Assembly (NCBI GenBank): GCA_038214755.1
Contig: JBBQRQ010000009.1
Span: 9,587 to 73,586, forward strand
Origin: Verrucomicrobiota bacterium
GTDB taxonomy: Bacteria > Verrucomicrobiota > Verrucomicrobiia > Limisphaerales > CANJXF01
DNA length: 64,000 nt
Reading direction: 5' to 3'
Shown: one piece after another, positions 13,267 through 60,115 of the stretch
How positions within the stretch are numbered: position 1 is the first letter of the stretch
Layout: every line of letters begins with the position of its first letter
Position numbers and translations under genes: made by a program
The notes under the pieces: model-generated
Database searches by the model: none
The model's input: the letters and a program-made list of their open reading frames with translations, nothing else
Told to the model about the DNA's origin: nothing

Positions 13267-13436
13267 CAATAAGTTCGCCGCGCAGGAGTTCGGAGCGGGG
13301 GGGTGTCGAACTGCAGCCGAGGTTGCTGGGTTGCGCGACGATCCAATCGCATCGTTGCGGTTTCAAAAAGAATTTATCTCCTATTGCATCGGGCGGATAA
13401 GGAAATAAACTCTTGTCTAATTTTTTGACTGTCCTT

Positions 13437-16127: not shown

Positions 16128-16173
16128 TTCCAAGCACGCACGACCACGAACGCGTTCTGCGCAAATAAATCCT

Positions 16174-18909
16174 ATGAAAATGAAAACATTATTTCCCCCA
16201 AAACTATTTCTTGGTACGACCGTGTTGCTGGCCGGGCTGTTGGCAGTCACGGCGCAGACGCTCCAGCCACAAGTGCTGTTTAGTTTTCCACATGGCCCGG
16301 AAAATCCCTATGCCGGTCTCGTGCAAGGGCAGGGCGGCAGTTTCTATGGCACGACTTCCAGCGGCGGCAGTGGCGGGTATGGGACGATATTCCAAGTGAC
16401 GACCAACGGCAAGTTGACCACGCTGGTCAGTTTTGCCTCCACCAACGGGACGCTTCCGTATTCGGGTCTGATGCTGGGTAGCGATGGCCTTTACTACGGC
16501 ACCACTTACAGTGGCGGCAGCAGCAACGTGGGAACGGTGTTCAAAGTGACTACCAACGGTGCATTGACCACGCTGGTCAGCTTCATCAGCTACACCAACG
16601 CCAGCGGGGCGAGTCCGTTAGCGGGCCTGACGCCAGGCAGCGATGGCCTTTTGTATGGCACCACTTACACCGGCGGCACCGGTGGCAAGGGGACGTTGTT
16701 CAAGGTAACAACCAACGGTGCATTGACCACTCTGGTCACTTTCAACGGCACCAACGGCAGTTTTCCGCGAGGAGATCTGGCAGTGGGCGGCGATGGCCTT
16801 TTCTATGGCATAACTTATAGTGGCGGCAGCAGCAATAAAGGAACGGTGTTCAAAGTGACGACCAATGGCACGTTGACTACGCTGGTTAGTTTCACCTCCG
16901 TTAACGGGGAGAATCCGCAAGCGGGTCTGACGCTGGGCACCGATGGTAGTTTCTACGGCACGACTTACAGTGGCGGCAACCTCGGCTATGGGACGGTGTT
17001 CAAGGTGACGACCAATGGCACTCTGACTACGCTGGTCAGTTTCAACTTGGTTAACGGATCGCAACCGTATGCCGGTCTGGCACTGGGCAGCGACGGCCTT
17101 TTCTATGGCACAACTTATAGTGGCGGCAACAGCAACAGAGGGACGGTGTTCAAGGTGACGACCAACGGCATATTGACTTCGCTGGTTAGTTTCACCAATG
17201 CCATCGCCACTGGGTCGAATCCACAAGCAAGCCTGGTGCAGGGCAGTGATGGTCTTTTCTATGGCACAGCTTCCCAAGGCGGGAGCGGCGGCAAGGGGAC
17301 GGTGTTCAAGATAACGACCAACGGCACGTTGACCACGCTGGTCACTTTCGCCTCTGTTTACGGGGCGCAACCGCATGCCGGTCTGGCACTGGGCAGCGAT
17401 GGCCTTTATTACGGGACCACTTTAAGTGGCGGGAGCGGCGACCGGGGGACATTGTTTAAGGTGACAACCAATGGCACTTTGACCACGCTATTCAACTTCG
17501 ACTCCATCTACTACAACTCCAACCTTGGAAATTTTACTAATACTATCGGTGCGAATCCATTTGGGAGTATGACGCTGGGCAGCGATGGCCTTTTTTATGG
17601 CACGACTGAAAATGGCGGCAGCCTCGGCTATGGGACGGTGTTCAAGGTGACGACTAACGGCGCATTGACCACGCTGGTCAACTTCAACTACACCAACGGG
17701 GCCAATCCGCAAGTAGGCCTGACGCTGGGCAGCGATGGACTCTTCTACGGCACGACAGTCAATGGCGGTAATGCCGGTGGAGGGACGGTGTTCAAGATGA
17801 CGACTAACGGCACGTTGACCACGCTGGTCAGTTTCGCTTCCACTAACGGGTCAACTCCGATTGGAAGTCTGGTGCAGGGGAGCGACGGCCTTTTCTACGG
17901 CACGACTTACTATAGCGGCATTAGCGGCTATGGGACGGTATTCAAGGTGACGACCAACGGCGCGTTAACTACATTGGTCACGTTCAACTCTGCCAACGGG
18001 GGAGGGCCGCAAGGGGTAACGCTAGGCAACGATGGGCTTTTGTATGGCACGACCTACTATGGTGGCAGCAGTGGCAAGGGGACGGTGTTCAAGATAACGA
18101 CCAATGGCGCGTTGACCACGCTGGTCAACTTCAACCACGTGAACGGAGCCTCTCCGCTAGCGGGTCTGACGCTGGGCGGCGATGGCCATTTCTATGGCAC
18201 GACCGATAGTGGTGGCGGCAGTAATATGGGCACGATATTTAAGATGACGACTAATGGCACGTTGACCACGCTGGTCAGTTTCAATTCGGCCAACGGGTCG
18301 TATCCCGAAGCGAGTCTGACGTTGGGTCGCGAGGGTAGTTTCTACAGCACGACCGTCAATGGCGGCAGCGATAATTTTGGGGTGATCTTCCGCCTGGACT
18401 TGCCGCCGGGAATTATTTCGCAGCCGGCCAGTCGAACCAATAGCGTGGGCACAACCGCCACCTTCACTGTCACTGCCAGCGGGACGCAACCATTCAGTTA
18501 TCAGTGGCGCAAGAATGGAACTAACATCGTGGATGGCGGGAATGTTTCCGGCGCAACCGCTAACACGCTCACGCTGGCGAATGTTCAGACCAATGACGCG
18601 GGTGGTTTCGCGGTAGTCGTCACCAACAGTTGGGGTAGTGTGACCAGTGCCGTGGCCGTGCTGACCGTGCAGACAGGTGGCAGCATTTCGGTGGTGTCAC
18701 TGCAAGTGGGAGTTCCGGCTCCGCCGACCAACACGCTCACCTTCGCGGGCATTCCCAACGCCCAATACCTCGTGCAATTCGCCACGAACCTAACCAGCAG
18801 TCCCTGGTTCATCCTGTCAACGAACACCGCGAGCGCGGACGGAACCTGGACGGTGATTGATCCCACCGCCACCAACGTGGAGCGGTACTATCGCGTCGCT
18901 ATGCCGTAA
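16174..18909 (+). CDS. choice-of-anchor tandem-repeat GloVer protein, tandem paralogue of 13437-16127
   Basis: ATG 16174 gives MKMKTLFPPKLFLGTTVLLAGLLAVTAQT (the track start 16075 overlaps the upstream gene). Thirteen GloVer units. The C-terminal ~180 aa are nearly identical to the upstream paralogue. Confidence 0.85.
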   Translation: MKMKTLFPPKLFLGTTVLLAGLLAVTAQTLQPQVLFSFPHGPENPYAGLVQGQGGSFYGTTSSGGSGGYGTIFQVTTNGKLTTLVSFASTNGTLPYSGLMLGSDGLYYGTTYSGGSSNVGTVFKVTTNGALTTLVSFISYTNASGASPLAGLTPGSDGLLYGTTYTGGTGGKGTLFKVTTNGALTTLVTFNGTNGSFPRGDLAVGGDGLFYGITYSGGSSNKGTVFKVTTNGTLTTLVSFTSVNGENPQAGLTLGTDGSFYGTTYSGGNLGYGTVFKVTTNGTLTTLVSFNLVNGSQPYAGLALGSDGLFYGTTYSGGNSNRGTVFKVTTNGILTSLVSFTNAIATGSNPQASLVQGSDGLFYGTASQGGSGGKGTVFKITTNGTLTTLVTFASVYGAQPHAGLALGSDGLYYGTTLSGGSGDRGTLFKVTTNGTLTTLFNFDSIYYNSNLGNFTNTIGANPFGSMTLGSDGLFYGTTENGGSLGYGTVFKVTTNGALTTLVNFNYTNGANPQVGLTLGSDGLFYGTTVNGGNAGGGTVFKMTTNGTLTTLVSFASTNGSTPIGSLVQGSDGLFYGTTYYSGISGYGTVFKVTTNGALTTLVTFNSANGGGPQGVTLGNDGLLYGTTYYGGSSGKGTVFKITTNGALTTLVNFNHVNGASPLAGLTLGGDGHFYGTTDSGGGSNMGTIFKMTTNGTLTTLVSFNSANGSYPEASLTLGREGSFYSTTVNGGSDNFGVIFRLDLPPGIISQPASRTNSVGTTATFTVTASGTQPFSYQWRKNGTNIVDGGNVSGATANTLTLANVQTNDAGGFAVVVTNSWGSVTSAVAVLTVQTGGSISVVSLQVGVPAPPTNTLTFAGIPNAQYLVQFATNLTSSPWFILSTNTASADGTWTVIDPTATNVERYYRVAMP

Positions 18910-49447: not shown

Positions 49448-49683
49448 CTTCCGACCAAACGGCGCACTTCAGCCAGCACCTGCTCTCCTGGTATCGGCTG
49501 GACGCGCCCGGATCGAACCTCGTCGCGGCGCCGAACTGCCTCTACGGCCCACAGTTTTTGTATCTCGTCCGTCTCTGCCTCATCCAAACTCTCGACCATC
49601 CGCTCTGCCAAAAGCGCCCGGGACGAAAAGGGAAGTTGCATCGCCTCTTCGGTAAGTTGGTCAACGGTCAATGACATGGGCAA
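49444..49683 (-). CDS. addiction-module antitoxin (Unstab_antitox-like)
   Basis: LTVDQLTEEAMQLPFSSRALLAERMVESLDE...WAVEAVRRRDEVRSGRVQPIPGEQVLAEVRR. Confidence 0.75.
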   Translation of the reverse strand: MPMSLTVDQLTEEAMQLPFSSRALLAERMVESLDEAETDEIQKLWAVEAVRRRDEVRSGRVQPIPGEQVLAEVRRLVGR

Positions 49684-49747
49684 AAGGTATTTGCTCGACG
49701 AAAAAACTCAAGCACGCGATGGCGCGGTCTCGTGAAACAAAATTCTC

Positions 49748-49776
49748 TTCGCACCCGCCGGCGGCAGATGCTACCC
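49748..49776. repeat. REP-like family A, single copy (inverted orientation)
   Basis: ttcgcacccgccggCggcagatgctaccc matches the 48312 copy at 28 of 29 positions. It covers the Uma2 stop codon. Confidence 0.85.
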
Positions 49777-50244
49777 AGCTCGGAAAAGCTCCGCGATTTC
49801 AATGCGCAAATCGGGAAGGAGTTTCTCGATCAGTGTTTCTTTGTTCGCCAGAATTTTTTGCAACGCCAGGCCGTAGGGACTGCCGTGATAAACTTCCACA
49901 TTGTCGTAGCGCGGATCGATCATCCAAAGGCGCGGCAGGCCGGTTTCTTCGTAAATCGATTTTTTCACCACGGTATCGAACCGATGATCGTCGGAATTGA
50001 TAATCTCCGCCGCGAGCCAGAGTCGATTGTTGGCGGTGGTGACGATGGCGAGATCGGGCCGCACCAAAGTGCCGGGCGAAAGTTGGATCACGGAACGCGG
50101 TGAGAGCAAACGTGAACTGGGAATTTCGGTCAAACATTTCGCGATTTGCGCGTGCAAGTGGGAGCAAATTTTTTCGTGGCGCAAACCGGGGGCGCTGCGC
50201 AAAAAAGTTTCGCCTTCGAGAATCTCCTGATACGGCTTAGACAT
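49771..50244 (-). CDS. Uma2-family (DUF820) putative PD-(D/E)xK endonuclease
   Basis: ..LVRPDLAIV...LWLAAEIINSDDHRFDTVVKKSIYEETGLPRLWMIDPRYDNVEVY matches the Uma2 D...E.S....D..K..Y pattern. The start overlaps the uvrA-paralogue stop by 8 nt (ATGTCTAA). Confidence 0.7.
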   Translation of the reverse strand: MSKPYQEILEGETFLRSAPGLRHEKICSHLHAQIAKCLTEIPSSRLLSPRSVIQLSPGTLVRPDLAIVTTANNRLWLAAEIINSDDHRFDTVVKKSIYEETGLPRLWMIDPRYDNVEVYHGSPYGLALQKILANKETLIEKLLPDLRIEIAELFRAG

Positions 50245-53131
50245 TTTTCAGCACTTTTCGCAAAAAACGTCCGGTATGCGATCGCCGGTTGGCCGCGATT
50301 TCTTCGGGCGTCCCTTGCGCCACAATCTCTCCGCCCGCCGTGCCGCCTTCCGGCCCGAGATCGATTACCCAATCGGCTTCCGCAATCAAATCCAGATTGT
50401 GTTCAATCACGATGACGGAATGGCCGGAATCGACGAGGCGCTGCAAAACCTCCACGAGCTTCCGCACGTCGGCCATGTGGAGACCAATCGTCGGTTCTTC
50501 GAGAATAAAAATGGATGAACCTGGCTTGCGCGTCTCTCTTGCTAATTCCAGTTCCGCTTGTTTTTTGGTTTGAATTTTCGCGTCGAGCTTTTGATTTCTA
50601 AAACCGGAGAGCAAATGCGTGACAAGTTTCATCCGCTGCGCCTCACCGCCGCTCAACGTCGGACTGGTTTGCCCGAGCTTGATGTAATCGAGTCCAGTAT
50701 CGCGCAACGCTTCCAGGGGGCGGCGAATTCGCGTTTGCGCCGCAAAAAAATCAATCGCTTCCGCCACGCTGAGATCGAGAATTTGCGCAATATTTTTCCC
50801 GGCAAACTCGACATCCAAAGTTTCTCGGTTGAAGCGACAGCCACCGCACGTTTCGCAACGCACAAACGCTGGCGGTAAAAAATTCATTTCCAGTTTGATC
50901 GTGCCCGCGCCCTCGCATTCGGGGCAGCGGCCTTGCGCGCTGTTGAAAGAAAATCGGCTCGCGGAATAGCCGCGCATCCGCGCTTCCGGCATTTGCGCGA
51001 ACAGTTGGCGGATGTCATCGAAGAAACCGACATAGGTCGCAGGAATCGAACGCGGTGTCCGCCCAATCGGCGCTTGATCCACTTCGTAAACGGATTGGAT
51101 GGATTCAAATCCGCGCAACTTCATGTTTTGCAAAGCAGGAGAATCCGCTGCGGAAGTTTTTTCGGCATTGTTTTTTTTTGATCTCACTTTGGCTTGAAGC
51201 ATCGGCAATAAACATTCGCGCACCAACGTGCTTTTGCCCGAGCCGCTCACGCCGGTGACGACGACAAATCGATTGAGCGGAAAACTCACGGAAAGATTTT
51301 TTAGATTGTGCACCGAAGCGTTTTGAAGCGTGAGCCAATAATTCGTAGCAGCCGAGGTGACGAGGCTCTGACTTTTTCCCCCACCAATTTTTTTTGAAGT
51401 GAGCCTCCTCACGTCGGCTCCTACAGAAACAGGCCGCCGTTTTCCCGAATGAGGGAAACATTTTTTCTCGCGCAAACAAGAGCCTGTGATCGAATCGCGA
51501 TGGCGCATCAATTCTTTCAACGTGCCCGTTGCCACAATTTCTCCGCCGTGAACTCCCGCGCCGGGACCGAGATCAATCACGTGATCGGCGTGACGCATCG
51601 TCTCTTCATCATGCTCGACCACGACAAGCGAATTGCCGCGCGATTTCAGAATCTCCAGCGCGGAAAGAAGTTGTTCGTTGTCGCGGGCGTGCAGACCAAT
51701 CGTCGGCTCGTCAAGAATGTAAAGCACCCCGCTAAGGTTTGAACCGAGTTGCGCCGCGAGGCGAATGCGTTGTGCTTCACCGCCGGACAAAGTCGTCGCG
51801 CCGCGCCCAAGTTGCAGATAACCCAAGCCGACTTCGCAAAGAAATTTCAGGCGCTCGCGAATCTCCGGCAAAATATCGCGGGCGATTTCCTTGTCGCGCC
51901 CTTTGAATTTCAACGTGCAAAAGAATTTTAGCGCGCTATCCACGGAAGCGTTACCGATGTCGATGATCGTAGGGGAGGCTTCCAGCCTGCCCTTTTTGGG
52001 GGCTGCGTGATTTGTGCTCATGGAAGGAATGGGCAGGCTGGAAGCCTGCCCTACGTTTAACCGCACCGTTCGCGCCACGGGATTCAACCTGGCCCCATTG
52101 CACTCAGGGCAAATCTCTCGTTTGCCTTCCTGCCATTCAAACCATGATTCCTCGATGGCGTCGGCGCGCGCGCCTCGCTCGACCTCCGGCAAATAAAAAA
52201 GTTCGCCGAAGCCGCGACACTTCGGACACCAGCCTTGCGAAGAATTGTAGCTAAAATTTTTCGGGTCCAGTTTCTCGAAGGATTGTCCGCACCCGGGACA
52301 AGCACGATGAATCGAGTGGATGGAAACTTTCTGATCGTTCGAGAGGGCGAACAAAGTCCCGTTTCCGAGACGCAATGCTTCGTCGATCAACTGTTGCGCA
52401 GTTTTGGAAAGGGGGGCAGAAGACTTGCCTATTTTTCGGAGGGGCAGGGGAGACGCCTGCCCTACTTTTTTATCGAGGATGCCGACGACGATTTCTACGT
52501 CGTGCTCGCGGAAACGATCCAACCGAAGGCGTTCGCTGGTGGAATAGATTTTTCCATCCGCGCGCACTTCGGCATAGCCATGTTTGGCCGCCCAGGCAGC
52601 AACATCGGTGTGAAAACCTTTTCGGTTTTTCACGACCGGGGCGAGCAGCAGCAAATCGCCGCGCCGCTTCATTTCCTCGCGGAGTTTTTTTCCAAGTTGA
52701 TCGCGGGTTTGCGCTTCGACCGGCAAATCGCAGTCGGGACAATATTGCGTTCCGAGCCGCGCGAAGAGCAGTCGAATGAAATGATAAATTTCCGTGACGG
52801 TCGCGACGGTGCTTTTTCCGCCGCCGCGCGAATTGCGTTGTTCGATGCTGACGGTCGGAGGAATGCCCGTGATCAAATCCACTTCCGGCCGCGAAAGTTG
52901 CTCGACGAATTGACGAACATAAACGTTCATCGAATCCAGGAAACGCCGTTGGCCTTCGGCAAATAAAATGTCGAAAGCCAATGTGCTTTTGCCCGAGCCG
53001 CTGACGCCAGTGATGACAACGAATTGATTTCGCGGAATCGAGACGGACAAATTTTTCAGATTGTGTTCGCGCGCGCCGTGAATGCGAATGGCGTTGTCGG
53101 AGGCCGCGAGAATTTTTCGTCCATTAATCAC
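50237..53131 (-). CDS. uvrA: UvrA-family ABC ATPase (excinuclease subunit A paralogue 1)
   Basis: HGAREHNLKNLSVSIPRNQFVVITGVSGSGKSTLAFDILFAEGQRR. Two Walker A motifs, two LSGGEAQR signatures, Zn-finger Cys pairs. DSMNVYVRQF replaces the canonical ESLSAYARQF. Confidence 0.9.
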   Translation of the reverse strand: MINGRKILAASDNAIRIHGAREHNLKNLSVSIPRNQFVVITGVSGSGKSTLAFDILFAEGQRRFLDSMNVYVRQFVEQLSRPEVDLITGIPPTVSIEQRNSRGGGKSTVATVTEIYHFIRLLFARLGTQYCPDCDLPVEAQTRDQLGKKLREEMKRRGDLLLLAPVVKNRKGFHTDVAAWAAKHGYAEVRADGKIYSTSERLRLDRFREHDVEIVVGILDKKVGQASPLPLRKIGKSSAPLSKTAQQLIDEALRLGNGTLFALSNDQKVSIHSIHRACPGCGQSFEKLDPKNFSYNSSQGWCPKCRGFGELFYLPEVERGARADAIEESWFEWQEGKREICPECNGARLNPVARTVRLNVGQASSLPIPSMSTNHAAPKKGRLEASPTIIDIGNASVDSALKFFCTLKFKGRDKEIARDILPEIRERLKFLCEVGLGYLQLGRGATTLSGGEAQRIRLAAQLGSNLSGVLYILDEPTIGLHARDNEQLLSALEILKSRGNSLVVVEHDEETMRHADHVIDLGPGAGVHGGEIVATGTLKELMRHRDSITGSCLREKKCFPHSGKRRPVSVGADVRRLTSKKIGGGKSQSLVTSAATNYWLTLQNASVHNLKNLSVSFPLNRFVVVTGVSGSGKSTLVRECLLPMLQAKVRSKKNNAEKTSAADSPALQNMKLRGFESIQSVYEVDQAPIGRTPRSIPATYVGFFDDIRQLFAQMPEARMRGYSASRFSFNSAQGRCPECEGAGTIKLEMNFLPPAFVRCETCGGCRFNRETLDVEFAGKNIAQILDLSVAEAIDFFAAQTRIRRPLEALRDTGLDYIKLGQTSPTLSGGEAQRMKLVTHLLSGFRNQKLDAKIQTKKQAELELARETRKPGSSIFILEEPTIGLHMADVRKLVEVLQRLVDSGHSVIVIEHNLDLIAEADWVIDLGPEGGTAGGEIVAQGTPEEIAANRRSHTGRFLRKVLKNV
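51345..51424. repeat. palindromic element translated in-frame within UvrA paralogue 1
   Basis: Arms gtagcagccgaggtgacgaggctc and gagcctcctcacgtcggctcctac. Read as ..VGADVRRLTSKKIGGGKSQSLVTSAATNY.. Confidence 0.8.
51969..52054. repeat. palindromic element (GGGCAGG-N7-CCTGCCCTAC units, inverted pair) in-frame within UvrA paralogue 1
   Basis: gtaggggaggcttccagcctgccc (51969-92) and gggcaggctggaagcctgccctac (52031-54). Read as ..GQASSLPIPSMSTNHAAPKKGRLEASPT.. Confidence 0.8.
52411..52465. repeat. two tandem hairpin units of the same family, in-frame within UvrA paralogue 1
   Basis: ggggggcagaagacttgcc followed by ggggcaggggagacgcctgccctac. Read as ..VGQASPLPLRKIGKSSAPLSK.. Confidence 0.65.
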
Positions 53132-53256
53132 CGGAAACTCTTAACATTCAAAAACGAATTCGCAAAATATCGCGCGAAAAAAAAAGCCGCTGAGAGCGAA
53201 CACTCCCAGCGGCCAGATGTTTGCTACGCCCGACTTGGGCGCGGCACCCAACGCAG

Positions 53257-53415
53257 TTATATTTTTCCCAACAAAACCAGAATCACGATGATGATCAGAA
53301 TGGCACCGATTCCTCCGGTCGGCCCGTAGCCCCACGAGGAACTATATCCCCAAGTGGGAATGACTCCGAGGAGAATGAGTATCAACAGAATGATTAGAAT
53401 TGTTCCCAGTGACAT
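53257..53415 (-). CDS. DUF3309-family small membrane protein (52 aa; below the ORF-track length cutoff)
   Basis: Hand translation gives MSLGTILIILLILILLGVIPTWGYSSSWGYGPTGGIGAILIIIVILVLLGKI*. ATG at 53415, TAA at 53257-59. This is the hallmark DUF3309 pattern. Confidence 0.7.
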   Translation of the reverse strand: MSLGTILIILLILILLGVIPTWGYSSSWGYGPTGGIGAILIIIVILVLLGKI

Positions 53416-53450
53416 AATTGTTCCTTTCGAAAAACCGAATGACGGACGAT

Positions 53451-53771
53451 TTATTTTACAACCAAATCGTTTTTAACGGACTTCACGCCATTGACACTGC
53501 GCGCGATTTCGGCGGCGCGATTTTTCTGAGACATTGTATCCACGAAGCCACTCAACTGGACGCGACCGTTGTAACTTTCCACTTTGACGGCGAGGCCTTT
53601 GACATCTGGGTCGCCCAGAAGGTCGGCTTTGACTTTGGCGGTGACAGATTTGTCATCGATATAGGCTCCCGTGCTCCGATGGGTGCGATCTCCCGCGCAG
53701 CCGCTGTTGAAAACGGCGATACCCAATCCCAAACAAACTACCAAACTGACGCTGGTTAATAATTTTTTCAT
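53451..53771 (-). CDS. BON-domain lipoprotein (OsmY-like)
   Basis: Signal plus lipobox-like ..VFNSGC. BON pattern YIDDKSVTAKVKADLLGDPDVKGLAVKVESYNGRVQLSGFVDTMSQKNRAAEIARSVNGVKSVKNDLVV. Confidence 0.8.
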   Translation of the reverse strand: MKKLLTSVSLVVCLGLGIAVFNSGCAGDRTHRSTGAYIDDKSVTAKVKADLLGDPDVKGLAVKVESYNGRVQLSGFVDTMSQKNRAAEIARSVNGVKSVKNDLVVK

Positions 53772-53950
53772 ATTTTTTTCTACTGCGGCTGCTCTTTTTT
53801 TCCTGAAAAAATTTTTGAAAATATTGGCGCGGCCTGCAATCAGGGCGCGCCTGTTTGGTTTCGACTAGAAAGTAACGGAGGTGAAGTGAGGGATTCCTCG
53901 ACCCGCGGGAGCATCGCAATTTCTTATAAAATGATCGAACGCCGATTAAA

Positions 53951-54021
53951 GGAACGCCGATCTCCAGATCGGCATTGGAACAAGCTATTTTTCCGCGAGC
54001 CGATCAGGAGATCGGCGTTCC
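53951..54021. repeat. 71-bp palindromic element 13 nt downstream of the UvrA-paralogue-2 stop (possible terminator)
   Basis: Arms ggaacgccgatctccagatcggc and gccgatcaggagatcggcgttcc, with one mismatch. Each arm is itself a small hairpin (gccgatc/gatcggc). Confidence 0.8.
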
Positions 54022-54033
54022 GTTGCCTTGCCG

Positions 54034-57000
54034 TTACTCGCCCATCGGCGCGAAGGCGCGCAGGGCGTGACCCGTATGACTTTCGGCGTGCGCGGCGATG
54101 GATTCCGGCGTGCCGACGGCCACGATTTTTCCTCCGTCAACGCCGGCTTCCGGTCCCAGATCGATGGCCCAGTCCGCCGATTTTATCACATCCAGATTAT
54201 GTTCGATGACGACGACGGAATGACCGGCATCGACGAGGCGTTGGAAAACTTTCAGCAGCACCCGCACGTCATGAAAGTGCAAACCGGTCGTCGGCTCGTC
54301 GAAGAGAAACAACGTCGGTTTTTTTTGTCCGCTTTCCGCAACGTTGGCTTCGGCCAAATGACTGACCAATTTCAGGCGTTGGCTTTCCCCGCCCGAGAGC
54401 GTGTTGATCGGCTGGCCGAGACGCAGATAACCCAAGCCCACTTCCTGAAGCAGCCGCAAACGTTCAACGCCGCGTTGGGCGTGGCGTGATTGGGAAAAGT
54501 CTTCCAAAAAGGCAATCGTTTCATCGACCGTCGCTTCCAACAGATCGGCGATGCTCCAGCCTGAAGTTGAGAGTTGAGAGGTGAGGGTTGAGCGGCGGAA
54601 TAACTTTGAACTTTGAACCTTAAACTTTGAACTCAACCTGATTTCCAAAATGTGCGGGCGATAACGGCGGCCATTGCATTCCGGGCAGCGAATAAAAATG
54701 TCACTGAGAAATTGCATTTCAATTTTTTCAAAGCCCGCGCCCCGACATTTTTCGCATTGGCCTTGTGCGGAATTAAAACTGAAGGCGCTCGCGTTCAGAC
54801 CGCGTTGGTTGGCCAAGTCCGTTTGCGCAAAGAGTTCGCGAATCTCGTCGAAGGCGCCGATGTAAACCGCCGGGTTGGAGCGTGGGGTTTTTCCCAGAGG
54901 CGATTGATCCACCAAAACGACGCGCCCCAAATTTTCCCACCCAGAGAGTTGGATTTTGGAATTCGGATTTGGGATTTCGGAATTTTCCTGGTCCTCCTCC
55001 GCCTGAATTTTGTCTCCGATCTGCTCTTTCTTGAAATTCGTCTCGAGAGCGGGCAACAAAACATCGCGAACCAACGTCGTTTTTCCAGAGCCGCTCACGC
55101 CGGTGATGCAGACAAAGCGGGTGAGCGGAATCTCGACAGAAATGTTTTTTAAATTGTGCGTCGATGCGTTGCGCAAAACCAGTGTGCTGCCGACATTCTG
55201 TCGGCAGTTCGCGAGTGGGGTTGATAAGTTTTCTGCCGACAGAATGGCGGCAGCACTTTGAACCTTGCGCCGTTGTGGGATTTTAATTTTCTTTTTCCCG
55301 CTTAGATATTTTCCCGTCAGCGAAGTTTTTGATTTTAGGATTTCACGAAATGTTCCTTGAAAAACCAGTTCGCCGCCCGCTGCGCCGTGACCGGGGCCGA
55401 GATCGACAATTTGATCAGCGGCGCGCATCACGCTGCTCTCGTGCTCCACAACGACGACGGTATTTCCCGAATCGCGAAGACGCTGAAGAATTTTTATGAG
55501 ACGCTCCGTGTCGCGCGCGTGCAAGCCGACGCTCGGTTCGTCGAGGACAAAAAGCGTGTTGACCAAACCGGAGCCTAGACACGTGGTGAGATTGACGCGC
55601 TCGGTCTCACCGCCGGAAAGTGTGCGCGTGGCGCGATCCAAAGTGAGATAGCCCAAGCCAACTTCATCGAGAAATCTGAGGCGCGATTGCACCTCGTTCA
55701 TCGCGAGAACGAGTGGGTCGGTCGATTGGAAATTTTTGCGATGCGATTGAAGCGCTTCCACAAATTGCAATGCGTCTCGAATCGAGAGTTGGTAGAAATC
55801 GGCGATGTGGATTTGGGATTTACGATTGACGAGTGACGCGTCGTTGGGAACTTCGCTCGTAAATCGTGAATCCGAAATCGTAAATCCCAAAGTGTTCGGT
55901 TGGAACCGTGTTCCGCCGCAATCCGCACAAGTTTTATATAAACGATAACGCGACAGCAAAACGCGGACATGCATTTTGTAAGCTTTGGATTCGAGCCAGC
56001 GGAAATAACCTTTGACGCCATACCACGCTCGAGGCCATTCGTGCGCGGAATCCTTTCCGTAACCGGGGTCGCCTTCGATGACCCAATCCTGAAATTGGCG
56101 CGGCAAATCTTTGAACGGAATATTCGTCGGAACTTTTCGCAGTTTGCAAAATTTCAGGAGGTCCTGCTGCGACTCCGCGCCTTGTCCGGTCTGCCACGGC
56201 CGCACCGCACCTTCGGCCAAAGTTTTCGCACGGTCTGGAATGGCGAGATCGTAATCAATCGCGATGGTGCGACCGAAGCCGCGACAAGTCGGGCACGCTC
56301 CGAGCGGATGGTTGAAACTAAAAAGGGCAGGAGAAGGCTCGCGGTACTCGATGTCGCAATGCGCGCAGTGAAAACGGTTGGAGAAGAAACGCGGAACGGG
56401 GAATGCGGAACGCGGAATGACATCAACTTCGCGAATCGACAGTTTTCCTTTTCCAAAATGGTAGGCTTGCTCGCAGGCTTCGACGAAGCGTTTGCGATTG
56501 GAGTCAATTAACTTCAAGCGATCCTGGACGACGGTGAGCGTGGTTGGTTTTAATTTCGACAACGCGTCGAGCGATTCATCAACGCGCAAAATTTCGTTGA
56601 CCACCAACAATCGCTGATAGCCTTGTTTGGAAATCAGCGCCAACGATTCTTCGAGTGAAATTTTTTCGGAAAGTGGAATGTCGAACGTAATGAGAATTTC
56701 ATCGTAGCCGCCAATTTCATCGTAGCCGCCGACGTGAGGAGGCGGATGGATCGAACGCGTATCAGACCGCCTCCTCACGTCGGCGGCTACGATATTTTCC
56801 CAAATCATTCGCGGCGAATCTTTGCGCACGAGTTGTCCGCAATTTTTGCAATGGAGTTGCGCCAGATGCGGCCAGAGCAATTTCGCGTAGTCGCAAATTT
56901 CCGTCATCGTGCCGACAGTGGAGCGCGTGGTCTTGACGGTGTTGCGTTGTTCGATGGCGATGGCGGGGGGGATTCCTTCGATGCTGTCCACTTGCGGCTT

Positions 57001-57246
57001 GTCCATGCGGTCGAGGAACTGGCGGGCGTAGGGCGAAAAAGTTTCGACGTAACGTCGCTGCCCTTCGGCAAAAAGTGTGTCGAACGCGAGGGAACTTTTT
57101 CCAGAGCCGCTCAAACCGGTGATGACAATCAATTTTCCGAGCGGCAGATCGAGGTCGAAATTTTTGAGATTGTTATGGCGCACACCGCGAAGGCGAATGA
57201 ATTTTGGCGCGGACTTTTTGAACATGGCGGCGGAATGTAAATCCAC
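54034..57246 (-). CDS. uvrA: UvrA-family ABC ATPase (paralogue 2, 1070 aa)
   Basis: RGVRHNNLKNFDLDLPLGKLIVITGLSGSGKSSLAFDTLFAEGQRRYVETFSPYARQFLDRMDKPQVDSIEGIPPAIAIEQRN. Two Walker A motifs, two LSGGE signatures, Zn-finger Cys pairs. Confidence 0.9.
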   Translation of the reverse strand: MDLHSAAMFKKSAPKFIRLRGVRHNNLKNFDLDLPLGKLIVITGLSGSGKSSLAFDTLFAEGQRRYVETFSPYARQFLDRMDKPQVDSIEGIPPAIAIEQRNTVKTTRSTVGTMTEICDYAKLLWPHLAQLHCKNCGQLVRKDSPRMIWENIVAADVRRRSDTRSIHPPPHVGGYDEIGGYDEILITFDIPLSEKISLEESLALISKQGYQRLLVVNEILRVDESLDALSKLKPTTLTVVQDRLKLIDSNRKRFVEACEQAYHFGKGKLSIREVDVIPRSAFPVPRFFSNRFHCAHCDIEYREPSPALFSFNHPLGACPTCRGFGRTIAIDYDLAIPDRAKTLAEGAVRPWQTGQGAESQQDLLKFCKLRKVPTNIPFKDLPRQFQDWVIEGDPGYGKDSAHEWPRAWYGVKGYFRWLESKAYKMHVRVLLSRYRLYKTCADCGGTRFQPNTLGFTISDSRFTSEVPNDASLVNRKSQIHIADFYQLSIRDALQFVEALQSHRKNFQSTDPLVLAMNEVQSRLRFLDEVGLGYLTLDRATRTLSGGETERVNLTTCLGSGLVNTLFVLDEPSVGLHARDTERLIKILQRLRDSGNTVVVVEHESSVMRAADQIVDLGPGHGAAGGELVFQGTFREILKSKTSLTGKYLSGKKKIKIPQRRKVQSAAAILSAENLSTPLANCRQNVGSTLVLRNASTHNLKNISVEIPLTRFVCITGVSGSGKTTLVRDVLLPALETNFKKEQIGDKIQAEEDQENSEIPNPNSKIQLSGWENLGRVVLVDQSPLGKTPRSNPAVYIGAFDEIRELFAQTDLANQRGLNASAFSFNSAQGQCEKCRGAGFEKIEMQFLSDIFIRCPECNGRRYRPHILEIRLSSKFKVQSSKLFRRSTLTSQLSTSGWSIADLLEATVDETIAFLEDFSQSRHAQRGVERLRLLQEVGLGYLRLGQPINTLSGGESQRLKLVSHLAEANVAESGQKKPTLFLFDEPTTGLHFHDVRVLLKVFQRLVDAGHSVVVIEHNLDVIKSADWAIDLGPEAGVDGGKIVAVGTPESIAAHAESHTGHALRAFAPMGE
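54562..54640. repeat. low-complexity short-repeat block (GTTGAG xN then CTTTGAAC xN) in-frame within UvrA paralogue 2
   Basis: tgaagttgagagttgagaggtgagggttgag...ctttgaactttgaaccttaaactttgaactcaac. Read as ..SSKFKVQSSKLFRRSTLTSQLSTS.. Confidence 0.55.
54949..54986. repeat. GGATTT(N)GG short direct-repeat tract in-frame within UvrA paralogue 2
   Basis: ttggattttggaattcggatttgggatttcggaatttt. Read as ..ENSEIPNPNSKIQ.. Confidence 0.5.
55184..55256. repeat. 73-bp palindromic element in-frame within UvrA paralogue 2
   Basis: Arms gtgctgccgacattctgtcggcag and ctgccgacagaatggcggcagcac, with one mismatch. Read as ..SAAAILSAENLSTPLANCRQNVGSTL.. Confidence 0.8.
55810..55892. repeat. ~80-bp palindromic element in-frame within UvrA paralogue 2
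   Basis: Termini gatttgggatttacgatt and aatcgtaaatcccaaag. Read as ..TISDSRFTSEVPNDASLVNRKSQ.. Confidence 0.7.
56695..56793. repeat. palindromic element plus an adjacent 18-bp tandem duplication, in-frame within UvrA paralogue 2
   Basis: Arms atcgtagccgccgacgtgaggaggcgg (56719-45) and ccgcctcctcacgtcggcggctacgat (56767-93). aatttcatcgtagccgcc occurs twice in tandem (56695-712, 56713-730). Read as ..AADVRRRSDTRSIHPPPHVGGYDEIGGYDEI.. Confidence 0.85.
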
Positions 57247-57287
57247 GCGCGAAGAAGTTCAAATGAACGCCGGGTTCAAATGAATGC

Positions 57288-57329
57288 GGGGTAGCATCTG
57301 CCTCCGGCGGGTGCGGCAGATGCTACCCC
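57288..57329. repeat. REP-like family A, compact hairpin form
   Basis: ggggtagcatctgcc-tccggcgggtgc-ggcagatgctacccc. Lies between the methyltransferase stop and the UvrA-paralogue-2 start. Confidence 0.9.
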
Positions 57330-57338
57330 TTCAGATTG

Positions 57339-58658
57339 CTACCCGCGAAATACGACGATCCGGTTTGTGTTCGTGCCTTTGGAATTGTTATCCACGCCCC
57401 AGCAATTCGCTGTCTTGGTAAATTTCTGGTCGTTGATCAAAATCAGTTCGGGATTCAAACCGGCTGCGATGCCGCAGGGCAAAATGGTTTCTTCCAGCTT
57501 TATTTTTCCGCCACGAATTTCGCCGACTTCAAACGCCACGTGACCGCCCGGTTTCAACACGCGGCGCAGTTCGCGAAAAACTTCCGTCATCGCAATTTGC
57601 CAATCTTCCAATTTGCGCGGCACGGTCAGCTTTACATTTTTCGCGTCGATACCGACAAACCAACAGCGCAGCCAGTTGTCGCCCGCATAATCGACCACAT
57701 CGAGAAATGGCGGCGAAGTGACGACGAGCGAAACGGATTGATCAGGAATTTGCGGAGTGCTGGAAGATGGCTCCGTGAGAAGCAATGCGCGCGAAAAATT
57801 TTTCTCCAAATTCTTCCGAGTCTTCGCGTCGCAATCGCTCAACAATATCCGGCTTTTTTTCAAAATGAGTTCCGCGACATTTCGCTGCGGTGGAATTTGA
57901 TTTCGATCCAGATTTATTTTTTTCTGCGATCGCAAAGACACCGCCTGATTGGGCGGCAAAGTGTAAACGGAAAAAAATCCCGGGGAATGTCCGGTCAAAC
58001 GATTGAGCGCGATCATGCGAATCCAATCGTCCACCGGATCAAGTTTTCCCTCGGCGACGCGCAGTAATAAATATTTTTTGAGCGAGAGAATTTGTTGAAG
58101 CGTTTCAGGATGATAAAACACGAGCAAATCTTCCGGCCATTCGTCGTGATCGGAAAAGTTGATTTCATTCAAGCGTTGAGCAATTTGCGCAAGAGTCGGA
58201 GGACACAGACGCGGCCTGGTTAAAAAAGCGCTCAGCGGATTCACGTCACAACCGAATGGAATTCGTCCCAACAAAGCGGCTTCGACCAAAGTGGTTCCTC
58301 GTCCCATAAACGGGTCGTAAACGATTTCGCCGGGCGCGGTGAGTCGCTCGATGAAGAAGCGGGGTAGTTGCGGTTTGAAACAAGCGCGGTAAGAAATTTC
58401 ATGCAGCCGGCTCGCGGCGCGTTGTTTGGAAGTCCAGAATTCGTTGACGCAAGTTTGGACGCAAACGGATTCTCCGGTGAACGTCATCGCCGAAGTGACG
58501 ATCCATTGCGTGGGTTCGCCAAATTGGCGGAAAGAATTTAGTTTGCGCGCCAACGCGTCTGACGAAAAGTTGCCGTCGGCAATTTTTTCCTCAGCTAAAT
58601 CCGAAAAGGAAAGTTGAGTCACGCGACTATTTAGCAAGGCGAAAAGAGCACGAGTCAA
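57339..58658 (-). CDS. SAM-dependent N6-adenine/N4-cytosine-type methyltransferase (DNA, possibly RNA), with no adjacent nuclease
   Basis: SAM-binding motif IVYDPFMGRGTTLVEAALLG (about aa 112-131) and catalytic-type motif VVTSPPFLDVVDY (about aa 313). Confidence 0.65.
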   Translation of the reverse strand: MTRALFALLNSRVTQLSFSDLAEEKIADGNFSSDALARKLNSFRQFGEPTQWIVTSAMTFTGESVCVQTCVNEFWTSKQRAASRLHEISYRACFKPQLPRFFIERLTAPGEIVYDPFMGRGTTLVEAALLGRIPFGCDVNPLSAFLTRPRLCPPTLAQIAQRLNEINFSDHDEWPEDLLVFYHPETLQQILSLKKYLLLRVAEGKLDPVDDWIRMIALNRLTGHSPGFFSVYTLPPNQAVSLRSQKKINLDRNQIPPQRNVAELILKKSRILLSDCDAKTRKNLEKNFSRALLLTEPSSSTPQIPDQSVSLVVTSPPFLDVVDYAGDNWLRCWFVGIDAKNVKLTVPRKLEDWQIAMTEVFRELRRVLKPGGHVAFEVGEIRGGKIKLEETILPCGIAAGLNPELILINDQKFTKTANCWGVDNNSKGTNTNRIVVFRG

Positions 58659-60031: not shown

Positions 60032-60115
60032 TTTTGTAGCGGCGCGTCTATGACCGCCGCTGAAATCGAAAAAGAATTTAATCACCGGCGGTCACAGACG
60101 CGCCGCTACAGAAAA
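60031..60115. repeat. REP-like family B, inverted pair forming a long hairpin between trmD and rplS
   Basis: attttgtagcggcgcgtctatgaccgccg (60031-59) and cggcggtcacagacgcgccgctacagaaaa (60086-115). Ends 8 nt before the rplS ATG. Confidence 0.85.

Follow-up and report, generated by a model that had tools for sequence, protein, structure and literature searches.

Why should an intact DNA repair gene hold, within a single uninterrupted reading frame, several stretches that resemble repeat DNA, and why should some of them lie at the same positions in a second copy of the gene? The question is raised by a 64,000-nt stretch of contig JBBQRQ010000009.1 from a Verrucomicrobiota bacterium (assembly GCA_038214755.1; the whole stretch is referred to here as the window), which carries two uvrA genes. 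The first, uvrA-N (paralogue 2; 54034..57246, minus strand), encodes an intact UvrA of 1070 aa in one open frame, and the second, uvrA-C (paralogue 1; 50237..53131, minus strand), encodes 964 aa. Six sites in uvrA-N contain inserts, each read in frame, and repeat-derived sequence makes up roughly 107 of the 1070 residues (~10%), confined to six loops. These inserts are very probably small non-coding repeat elements of the host that lie inside the uvrA frame and are tolerated there. A prediction made previously from the sequence alone (the original prediction) had counted at least five in-frame repeat inserts, which is borne out, with the sixth at 56388–56419 (IPRSAFPVPR).

The inserts may be assigned to two classes, namely head-to-head dimers of repetitive extragenic palindromic (REP) sequences with GTAG or GTGC heads, resembling the REP doublets forming hairpins known as REPINs (sites 1 and 4, plus the REP copies in paralogue 1), and heptanucleotide tandem arrays, either single or as inverted pairs (sites 2, 3, 5, and 6). 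Site 1 (56719..56793, minus strand) is a dimer of REP family A, GTAGCCGCCGACGTGAGGAGGCGG ... CCGCCTCCTCACGTCGGCGGCTAC, measuring 69 nt from GTAG to CTAC (56722–56790) and translated as IVAADVRRRSDTRSIHPPPHVGGYD within the start of the UvrB-binding-domain region. Site 4 (55184..55256, minus strand) is a dimer of REP family E, GTGCTGCCGCCATTCTGTCGGCAG ... CTGCCGACAGAATGTCGGCAGCAC, translated as SAAAILSAE..NCRQNVGST in the linker between the two nucleotide-binding domains (NBD-I and NBD-II). Site 3 (55809..55892, minus strand) is a hairpin whose arms are inverted heptamer arrays, (GATTTAC)n ... (GTAAATC)n, translated as TISDSRFTSEV..LVNRKSQI in the loop after zinc module 2. Site 2 (56385..56419, minus strand), which the original prediction missed, is an array of GCGTTCC-like units on the coding strand, translated as IPRSAFPVPRF and amounting to a gain of 6 codons over close orthologues. 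Site 5 (54948..54986, minus strand) consists of GAAATCC-like units on the coding strand, translated as ENSEIPNPNSKIQ after the Walker A helix of NBD-II, and site 6 (54562..54640, minus strand) of two adjoining arrays that read (AAGTTCA)n and (CTCAACT)n in the coding sense, translated as LSSKFKVQSSKL..RRSTLTSQLST. The loop that contains the latter follows zinc module 3 and, in the second half of UvrA, corresponds structurally to site 3. The odd peptides quoted in the original prediction all belong to the single open frame 54034–57246 on the minus strand.

Arm complementarity and folding both confirm the three palindromes that had been located in this gene. The arms at 56719–56793 (27 nt) are 100% complementary, those at 55184–55256 (24 nt) 96%, and those at 55812–55891 (27 nt) 81%; as mRNA, the three fold with -64.5, -44.2, and -29.9 kcal/mol, respectively (z = -13.1, -9.9, and -5.1), and none of 200 shuffles matched the fold of any of them. 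A scan of 49500–58000 against Rfam revealed no known RNA family, and the hairpins matched eukaryotic miRNA precursor models below threshold only, which suggests that they are generic hairpins.

The two blocks described previously as low-complexity short repeats (54562–54640 and 54949–54986) are present and prove to be period-7 tandem arrays. The arrays proper extend over 54565–54592 (unit AGTTGAG), 54602–54633 (AACTTTG), and 54951–54985 (GGATTTC), and at site 2 over 56388–56419 (AACGCGG). Tandem Repeats Finder reported period-7 rows starting at 54565, 54602, 54951, 55817, 55857, and 56388, each of 3.1–4.6 copies with 73–86% matches, and as head-to-tail 7-nt units in at least three copies these are heptameric simple sequence repeats (SSRs). 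A period-7 detector found five arrays in uvrA-N, compared with a mean of 0.01 (maximum 1) over 300 dinucleotide shuffles, and none outside uvrA-N within the window. When the heptamer blocks 54560–54642, 54945–54990, and 56384–56422 were folded, no significant structure was obtained (z = -1.1 and -0.3 for the two blocks named previously), and the idea that these three blocks act as hairpins was rejected.

The protein that holds these inserts is an intact UvrA. Zinc modules accompany two ABC ATPase modules that have Walker A, Walker B, and signature motifs, the Walker A and signature motifs being present in each module, and the motifs are invariant across 26 orthologues. Against the UvrA family model NCBIfam TIGR00630 (cut-off 729.8), paralogue 2 scored 948.7 bits and paralogue 1 scored 982.8 bits. 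Both align over their full length with solved UvrA structures (3PIH, 2R6F, and 3ZQJ), paralogue 2 with E ~1e-212 or better to PDB 3PIH/2R6F. A fused form of ~1840 aa holding both UvrA halves is frequent in other Verrucomicrobia; here there are two separate genes, uvrA-N being the homologue of the N-terminal half of this double UvrA and uvrA-C that of the C-terminal half. The closest database relatives of uvrA-N are from uncultured Verrucomicrobiota labelled Pedosphaera or Limisphaerales. The nearest matches are metagenome-assembled genomes (MAGs), and repeats are a classic cause of assembly errors, which could point to an artefact of mis-assembly or to a decaying pseudogene. All 1070 codons are open, however, with the catalytic motifs intact, elements are found at the same sites in orthologues that were assembled independently, and some inserts are common to relatives and bear substitutions, making an artefact of either kind extremely improbable. 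Mis-assembly was accordingly rejected on the agreement of independent assemblies, and inteins, programmed frameshift sites, and a pseudogene were rejected on the continuous frame and the lack of such signatures in the inserts.

All six inserts face gaps in alignments to the UvrA structures of T. maritima and B. stearothermophilus. In an AlphaFold model of uvrA-N built from 26 orthologues (mean pLDDT 71.8), pLDDT falls below 50, without regular secondary structure, at residues 164–179 (site 1), 278–280 (the only residues of site 2 below this value), 462–475 (site 3), 665–685 (site 4), 744–763 (site 5), and 875–894 (site 6). This low confidence at all six sites is consistent with flexible surface loops, for which the original prediction had proposed a check by AlphaFold. 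Compared with the median of 90 fused N-halves from other Verrucomicrobia, the linkers of uvrA-N are longer at site 1 (35 residues vs. 12), site 2 (15 vs. 9), site 3 (31 vs. 14), site 4 (28 vs. 5), site 5 (36 vs. 21), and site 6 (30 vs. 7), and given the short linkers of the fused type the insert segments are not ancestral to this subclass. A few fused proteins (P0051, P0072, and P0005, P-numbers denoting homologous proteins) are also expanded by 40 residues at sites 3, 5, or 6, and the site 6 expansion of P0051, KKTGQPERSEGSGTQAAKILRGAYPERSRRAQ, is hairpin-derived in appearance. These cases indicate that the same loops are prone to expansion outside the clade with split genes too.

Paralogue 1 carries three REP inserts, comprising two dimers and one single REP. 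A family A dimer of the GCTC subfamily (51345..51424, minus strand), with arms that are 88% complementary, lies in its NBD-I/NBD-II linker, and a family B dimer, GTAGGGCAGGCTTCCAGCCTGCCC followed by its inverted copy (51966..52057, minus strand), lies at the equivalent of site 3. The single REP, GTAGGGCAGGCGTCTCCCCTGCCCC on the coding strand (52441..52465, minus strand), is family-B-like, is translated as VGQASPLP, and was seen in this genome only. Three insert positions had been expected to coincide between the paralogues, and two of them do. Placed on a common UvrA frame, that of B. stearothermophilus (Bst), the 55184 and 51345 elements share the NBD-I/NBD-II linker (Bst ~623–628), and the 55810 and 51969 elements share the position after CxxCxG of zinc module 2 (Bst ~437–448), preceding the helix ..S(I/V)xxAxxF, just as had been proposed for both pairs. 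At the third, which follows the Walker A helix of NBD-II, both paralogues are longer than canonical, and the segment in paralogue 1 is not recognisably repeat-derived. The 51345 dimer is common to L001–L003 (L-numbers denoting fetched genome loci) with identical uncompensated arm mutations, and is therefore an old insert inherited vertically.

As far as their sequence can tell, the REP inserts match the definition of GTAG REPs (Di Nocera, De Gregorio & Rocco 2013, PMC3733652), having a GTAG/GTRG head beside a short imperfect palindrome (~20–40 bp). The heads are GTAGCCGCCGACGTGAGGAGGCGG at 56722, GTAGCAGCCGAGGTGACGAGGCTC at 51345, and GTAGGGGAGGCTTCCAGCCTGCCC at 51969, and the 55184 element has a GTGC head followed by CTGCCGACA-TTC-TGTCGGCAG. 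In both paralogues the dimers are inverted, head-to-head pairs with spacers of 21–38 nt. The 56719 and 51345 elements do share a core, as had been noticed, and form one family (family A). The exact pattern GCCTCCTCACGTCGGCNNCTAC, with 20 specified bases and ~1 chance match expected by our own estimate, was found in at least 117 genome stretches, almost all from Verrucomicrobiota and from many species. Extraction gave 66 head-to-head dimers in two subfamilies with compensatory stem changes, GTAGCAGCC..GGCTC (paralogue 1) and GTAGCCGCC..GGCGG (paralogue 2), and 20 of 22 bases are conserved over many species of the phylum. Family E, to which the 55184 element belongs, occurs in at least 120 metagenome stretches, with an inverted partner in 84 of 127 copies. 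A local search of the fetched loci found almost nothing of this family outside uvrA orthologues, and its status as a dispersed repeat therefore comes from the metagenome scan. Elements of both families are thus dispersed repeats with copies elsewhere, and several genomes are represented by more than one contig. Within the window there are two copies of family A, one dimer of family E, two to three copies of family B, five of family C, and three of a 60036-type repeat. Family A matches at L007, L009, L016, L017, L028, L044, L069, L070, L074, L075, and L085 carry Bifidobacterium, Klebsiella, or Akkermansia MAG labels; as family A is otherwise strictly verrucomicrobial, the Bifidobacterium and Klebsiella labels look mis-binned.

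Family A shows a preference in its flanks, with C at -1 in 43 of 64 dimers and G at +1 in 36 of 64. Target-site duplications, which it had been suggested might be found at other copies, are lacking in 50 of the 64 dimers, and the others show only a direct repeat of 1–3 nt. This bears on the exact 18-bp tandem duplication beside site 1 (56695..56730, minus strand), GGCGGCTACGATGAAATT on the coding strand, giving GGYDEIGGYDEI, which is specific to this genome. The duplication is present as originally reported, but the suggestion that it is an insertion footprint was rejected. Its unit consists of 9 nt of REP tail, GGCGGCTAC, and 9 nt of native sequence, GATGAAATT (L005 has GATGACATC); it lies on one side of the element only and spans the junction of REP tail and native sequence, and the family to which the element belongs lacks target-site duplications. 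A duplicated REP tail was seen at 3 of 149 family A arm ends compared with 0 in the control. The 18-bp repeat is a later tandem duplication across the junction.

In-frame residence is not special to uvrA. Of 123 family A elements in other genomes, 39 are found in open frames that reach 500 codons or more, as are 33 of 127 family E copies. The genes hosting family A encode valyl-tRNA synthetase, another class I tRNA synthetase, AcrB, an MmeI-type enzyme, and TPR-CHAT and PSD/PSCyt proteins, and in the two synthetases and AcrB the element falls within Pfam domains. The copies inside uvrA are likewise in frame rather than extragenic, although extragenic location is not a strict criterion for REPs (PMC3733652). 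Read from the sequence, the family A REP has no stop codon in five of its six frames, and an insertion that keeps the frame would therefore simply be translated.

Family A also counts as a REP-RAYT system by the usual criteria, RAYT being the REP-associated tyrosine transposase. Family A REPs stand on either side of two RAYT-like open reading frames (ORFs) of 189–208 aa (L118:3255-3821 and L015:935-1558), and another ORF of this kind, L122:3891-4172, adjoins a family A dimer. The spans holding RAYT and REPs (L118:3094-4123, L015:819-1614, and L122:3764-4172) come from three different verrucomicrobial genomes, and the three proteins share about 57–64% identity. The model NCBIfam NF047646 (REP-associated tyrosine transposase) matches L118 with E = 1.3e-17 and L015 with E = 7.2e-12, and the L118 ORF matches the E. 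coli TnpArep structure (PDB 4ER8) with E = 7e-9.

Taken as tolerated host repeats, the inserts may be accounted for as follows. REP dimers and heptamer arrays would have entered, or expanded within, the uvrA reading frame, the dimers mobilised by a RAYT and the arrays growing and shrinking through slippage. Only insertions in solvent-exposed, unstructured UvrA linkers would survive selection, and every surviving insert would therefore be found in one of about six loops, which would be re-used, nested into, and overwritten in different lineages. Such tolerance would explain the coincidence of positions between the paralogues, between the two halves of the protein, and among orthologues. The inserted peptides would then be neutral, and the shared positions would reflect selection rather than targeting.

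Comparison of 27 uvrA-N orthologue proteins (63–81% identity), and of the DNA of seven orthologous loci, reveals turnover at these sites. The orthologues range in length from about 1011 to 1149 aa, with essentially all of the variation at the same six sites, which hold different repeat-derived peptides in different lineages. Site 1 contains a perfect family A dimer in this genome, a different REP dimer (GTAGGGACGCG...) in L001 and L002, a degenerate family A dimer with another hairpin nested inside it in L004, and nothing in L005. Site 3 contains the (GATTTAC)n hairpin in this genome, L003, L004, and the distant L125, with a REP dimer instead in L001 and L002. The family E dimer of site 4 is present here, in L001, and in L003, and L002, L004, and L005 have none. 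Site 5 of L002 holds ATCCAGA x3, and its site 6 a GCGTTCC/GGAACGC hairpin, and P0052 has AAGTTCA-type peptides at three sites. In paralogue 1, the equivalent of site 3 holds the family B dimer here, another REP in L002, a heptamer array in L001 and L003–L005, and nothing in L124. Permissive "landing pads" had been suggested for these linkers, and the finding that the same six sites are hypervariable with different repeats in 25–27 orthologues, and that paralogue 1 behaves alike, supports that suggestion.

Several observations nevertheless weigh against an explanation by tolerance, or against parts of it. At three sites a single start nucleotide is shared by different REP families; at site 1, for instance, family A and the REP of L001 and L002 both start directly after GAAAAYATS, and random insertion followed by selection alone would not readily produce shared start nucleotides. 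The repeats are also concentrated in uvrA. In 151 kb from five syntenic loci, a count of hairpins whose stems reach 16 nt or more gave nine in uvrA-N, three in uvrA-C, 19 in 18.7 kb of intergenic DNA, and none in the 102 kb taken up by other genes, these counts not being phylogenetically independent. Heptamer arrays reach 1.13 per kb in uvrA-N orthologues vs. 0.14 per kb elsewhere, densities that are likewise not phylogenetically independent, and uniform tolerance does not obviously explain such a concentration. The heptamer units of sites 2 and 3 overlap with native coding sequence (CCGCGTT and GGATTTACGATTTCG), which makes local expansion rather than insertion possible there. Regarding mobilisation, the NF047646 scores of 64 and 45 bits are under the curated cut-off of 80, and a Pfam scan of the candidate RAYT ORFs, including Y1_Tnp, gave no match; NCBIfam and PDB are therefore the basis of the identification. 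Searched locally with tblastn, neither the window nor the family E loci gave a RAYT gene; as the window covers only 64 kb of the genome, mobilisation by a RAYT in this genome is something that we infer from its relatives. Identical start nucleotides, wholesale stem swaps, and the strength of the enrichment in uvrA are not fully explained by tolerance.

The shared start nucleotides may instead point to re-use of specific sites, in which an existing element or a nearby short target directs the next insertion, excision, or gene conversion, giving replacement in situ. Besides site 1, the same start is seen at the paralogue 1 equivalent of site 3, where the family B dimer and the REP of L002 begin at the same codon boundary, replacing rather than adding to the heptamer array. 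The copies at site 4 have both junctions in common yet differ by compensatory changes in all four half-stems (CGACA/TGTCG vs. CAGCA/TGCTG). The hairpin nested in the degenerate dimer of L004 and the flank preference of family A would fit as well, and at site 1 the perfect arms (27/27) suggest a recent arrival at a position where relatives in the clade carry a different REP. This evidence comes from a handful of sites, however, and in permissive loops as short as these, junctions may coincide without this being very improbable. When repeat ends are aligned with GTAG as the anchor, junctions can look more alike than they are, the neighbour-joining tree is approximate, and swapping of REPs has no experimentally demonstrated mechanism. 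Site-specific re-use is therefore a possibility that we regard as tentative. Equally speculative is the broader idea of a single dynamic system, made up of REP dimers together with heptamer arrays, by which the same nucleotides of the uvrA linkers are colonised, nested in, and overwritten time and again, through site-directed REPIN exchange at existing hairpins (RAYT-mediated excision and insertion, or REP-to-REP conversion). If this were true, uvrA would be a natural, densely sampled recorder of REPIN mobility.

A different origin may be considered for sites 2, 5, and 6, and possibly for the arms of site 3, namely that their heptamer blocks are local slippage expansions of the native linker and not insertions. 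Period-7 repeats are favoured in these genomes; 7 is the commonest tandem-repeat period, accounting for 174 of 735 arrays in 1.03 Mb of verrucomicrobial loci, with AAATCGT the commonest heptamer unit overall. At site 2 the native sequence of orthologues already has CCGCGTT, to which ~three more units have been added here, and the site 3 array begins inside the conserved LGFTIS codons. Units drift and expand between orthologues, as with the ATCCAGA repeat at site 5 of L002, and over-representation of heptameric SSRs has been ascribed to polymerase slippage (PMC4692102). On the other hand, the same units recur across sites and genomes (GCGTTCC/GGAACGC, AAGTTCA-type, and AAATCGT), and simple slippage does not explain inverted-pair arrays, which are frequent (e.g., site 3 here and site 6 of L002), or arrays in the spacers of REP dimers. 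Such spacer arrays accompany 13 of 149 family A arms, each copy having a unit of its own, which indicates that the two element classes are physically associated. Slippage seems the less likely origin of these blocks, although for sites 2, 5, and 6 it is a reasonable alternative. Perfect short heptamer spacers were also noted in family A dimers at L117:2985-3075, L017:3804-3897, L029:3730-3823, L052, L058, L074, L081, and others, the units varying by copy (ATTTCGG, CGCATTC, TGCGGAG, GTTCCGA, CAATCGG, and others). A literature search for heptamer arrays in Verrucomicrobia or Planctomycetes returned nothing specific.

The strong enrichment in uvrA compared with neighbouring genes could also be read as a sign that the inserts are selected for a function, whether modulation of UvrA (a mutator or hypermutable state, as Di Nocera et al. 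speculate), tuning of expression by hairpins, or frame-shifting heptamer switches. Enrichment in repair genes has been noted in other phyla, hairpins of -64 and -44 kcal/mol lie within a coding region, and the site 3 hairpin has been kept with complementary arms on both sides of the root (L125, L004, and this genome). A functional role is nevertheless not favoured, since the inserts at a given site are completely different between orthologues and the same REP families occur in unrelated housekeeping genes. The arms of the old element in paralogue 1 have also decayed without compensation, and the arrays, with their imperfect matches (79–86%), would make poor slippage switches. Selection for function thus appears improbable, and tolerance of host repeats remains the reading that we prefer.

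The surroundings of the two genes are conserved in the order DNA methylase, uvrA-N, (BON), uvrA-C, Uma2, and polyprenyl synthetase. A small BON-domain gene (53451-53771, minus strand) separates the two uvrA genes in this genome, as it does in L001, L003, and L005; L002 has no BON gene there, and its uvrA genes overlap by 4 nt. A hairpin with 26-nt arms (53948-54024) lies directly downstream of the uvrA-N stop codon, and a 17-nt tandem duplication, GTTCAAATGAACGCCGG x2.1 (57257-57292), lies immediately 5' of its start, beside a REP hairpin. At least two more REP families have intergenic copies in the window. One of them, GGGTAGCATCTGCCTCCGGCGGGTGCG, is present five times (48248, 48314, 49750, 57289, and 62051), apparently always between genes, with one copy a dimer with 40-nt arms and one just upstream of uvrA-N; this family is also found in L001. 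Another hairpin repeat, the GTAGCGGCGCGTCTATGACCGCCGC dimer (59318 and 60032-60113), is intergenic, and CCCTCTCCTCGGAGGAGAGGG, likewise intergenic, occurs in three copies (2177-2329 and 2444), its translation being like the SPLPSPSGRGG-type peptides inserted in the orthologue P0082. Elsewhere in the window, tandem arrays with a 150-nt (50-aa) unit of ~70–74% identity (14106-18365) lie inside the ORFs 13413-16127 and 16075-18909 (plus strand), which look like genes for a repeat-domain protein.

The closest precedent is from the same phylum. In Opitutus terrae, both uvrA genes contain in-frame GTAG REPs, including double REP inserts (Di Nocera, De Gregorio & Rocco 2013, PMC3733652); Oter_2709, a 1995-aa excinuclease ABC A subunit, has REP-encoded residues 638-644 and 1601-1623, and Oter_3168 carries REPs too (PMC3733652). 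Replication and repair genes are often the hosts of intragenic REPs, which may be placed in flexible linkers (PMC3733652). The two cases are alike in phylum and host protein family, in the possibility of several inserts per gene, and in the presence of GTAG stem-loops, single or dimeric, that are read in frame and encode about 7–30 residues. They differ in that the O. terrae REPs are GTAG-17 to GTAG-20, with peptides such as WHGRLARV/TGGTPVP, whereas other REP sequences are found here, with more inserts (six sites, plus three REP inserts in the paralogue), the involvement of heptamer arrays, and turnover at fixed sites seen from the comparison of orthologues.

REPINs consist of two inverted REPs with a short spacer that form a hairpin (Bertels & Rainey 2011, PMC3116915). 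The elements described here share with REPIN-RAYT systems the inverted REP hairpins, multi-copy dispersal, stem subfamilies with compensatory changes, a lack of target-site duplication, and a RAYT flanked by cognate REPs. Such systems are said to have been treated by Nunvar et al. in 2010 and by Ton-Hoang et al. in 2012. Unlike classic REPINs, which are extragenic, about a third of the copies here lie in long reading frames; family A is conserved across a phylum, spacers are often heptamer arrays of variable unit, and the window is without a RAYT. Rickettsia palindromic elements (RPEs), reportedly introduced by Ogata et al. in 2000 as in-frame palindromes in genes, are an older precedent. Their hosts include repair and replication genes, such as uvrB and dnaE in R. 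conorii, and RPE-4 and RPE-6 are of the CGTC type (PMC3733652). RPEs are similar in being palindromic repeats in frame in still-functional genes, thought to lie in surface loops, but have another head motif and are found in another phylum, in obligate intracellular hosts with reduced genomes, have no link to a RAYT, and in the case of RPE-1 are longer (about 100–150 bp).

Period-7 arrays are also known as the short tandemly repeated repetitive (STRR) heptamers of heterocystous cyanobacteria. Heptameric SSRs are over-represented as GGGAATC in Xanthomonas and GGGGAYT in Nostoc, in intergenic DNA (PMC4692102). The arrays in uvrA resemble them in being over-represented period-7 arrays of few units, sometimes in inverted stem-loop pairs, with units like GGATTTC and GGAATTC, and differ in lying in frame in a conserved enzyme and in REP spacers, with many different units. 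MITEs of bacteria (miniature inverted-repeat transposable elements), such as Correia/NEMIS, RUP, ERIC, and Nezha, have terminal inverted repeats derived from insertion sequences and produce target-site duplications. Like MITEs, the elements described here are small dispersed repeats, non-autonomous and able to form hairpins, and can be transcribed together with genes; in family A, however, no target-site duplication was found.

In its essentials the phenomenon is therefore already known, in-frame REPs in verrucomicrobial uvrA included, and the findings here extend known biology and do not open up a new field. What is added is a set of different REP families, the link of family A to a RAYT, heptamer arrays in frame and in spacers, and site-by-site turnover. 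The movement of REPs and REPINs is still poorly understood, and their name assumes an extragenic location; a natural set of filled, empty, and replaced sites is available here for the gain, loss, and replacement of REPINs. For annotation and alignment of proteins from Verrucomicrobia there is a warning, in that LLTSAAT, PPHVGGY, CRQNVGS, and SKFKVQSSK are repeat read-through and not protein motifs. The six sites also provide a map of the positions in UvrA that tolerate insertions of 6–30 residues, in a repair enzyme of the essential type of which about 10% of the residues are translated repeat DNA.

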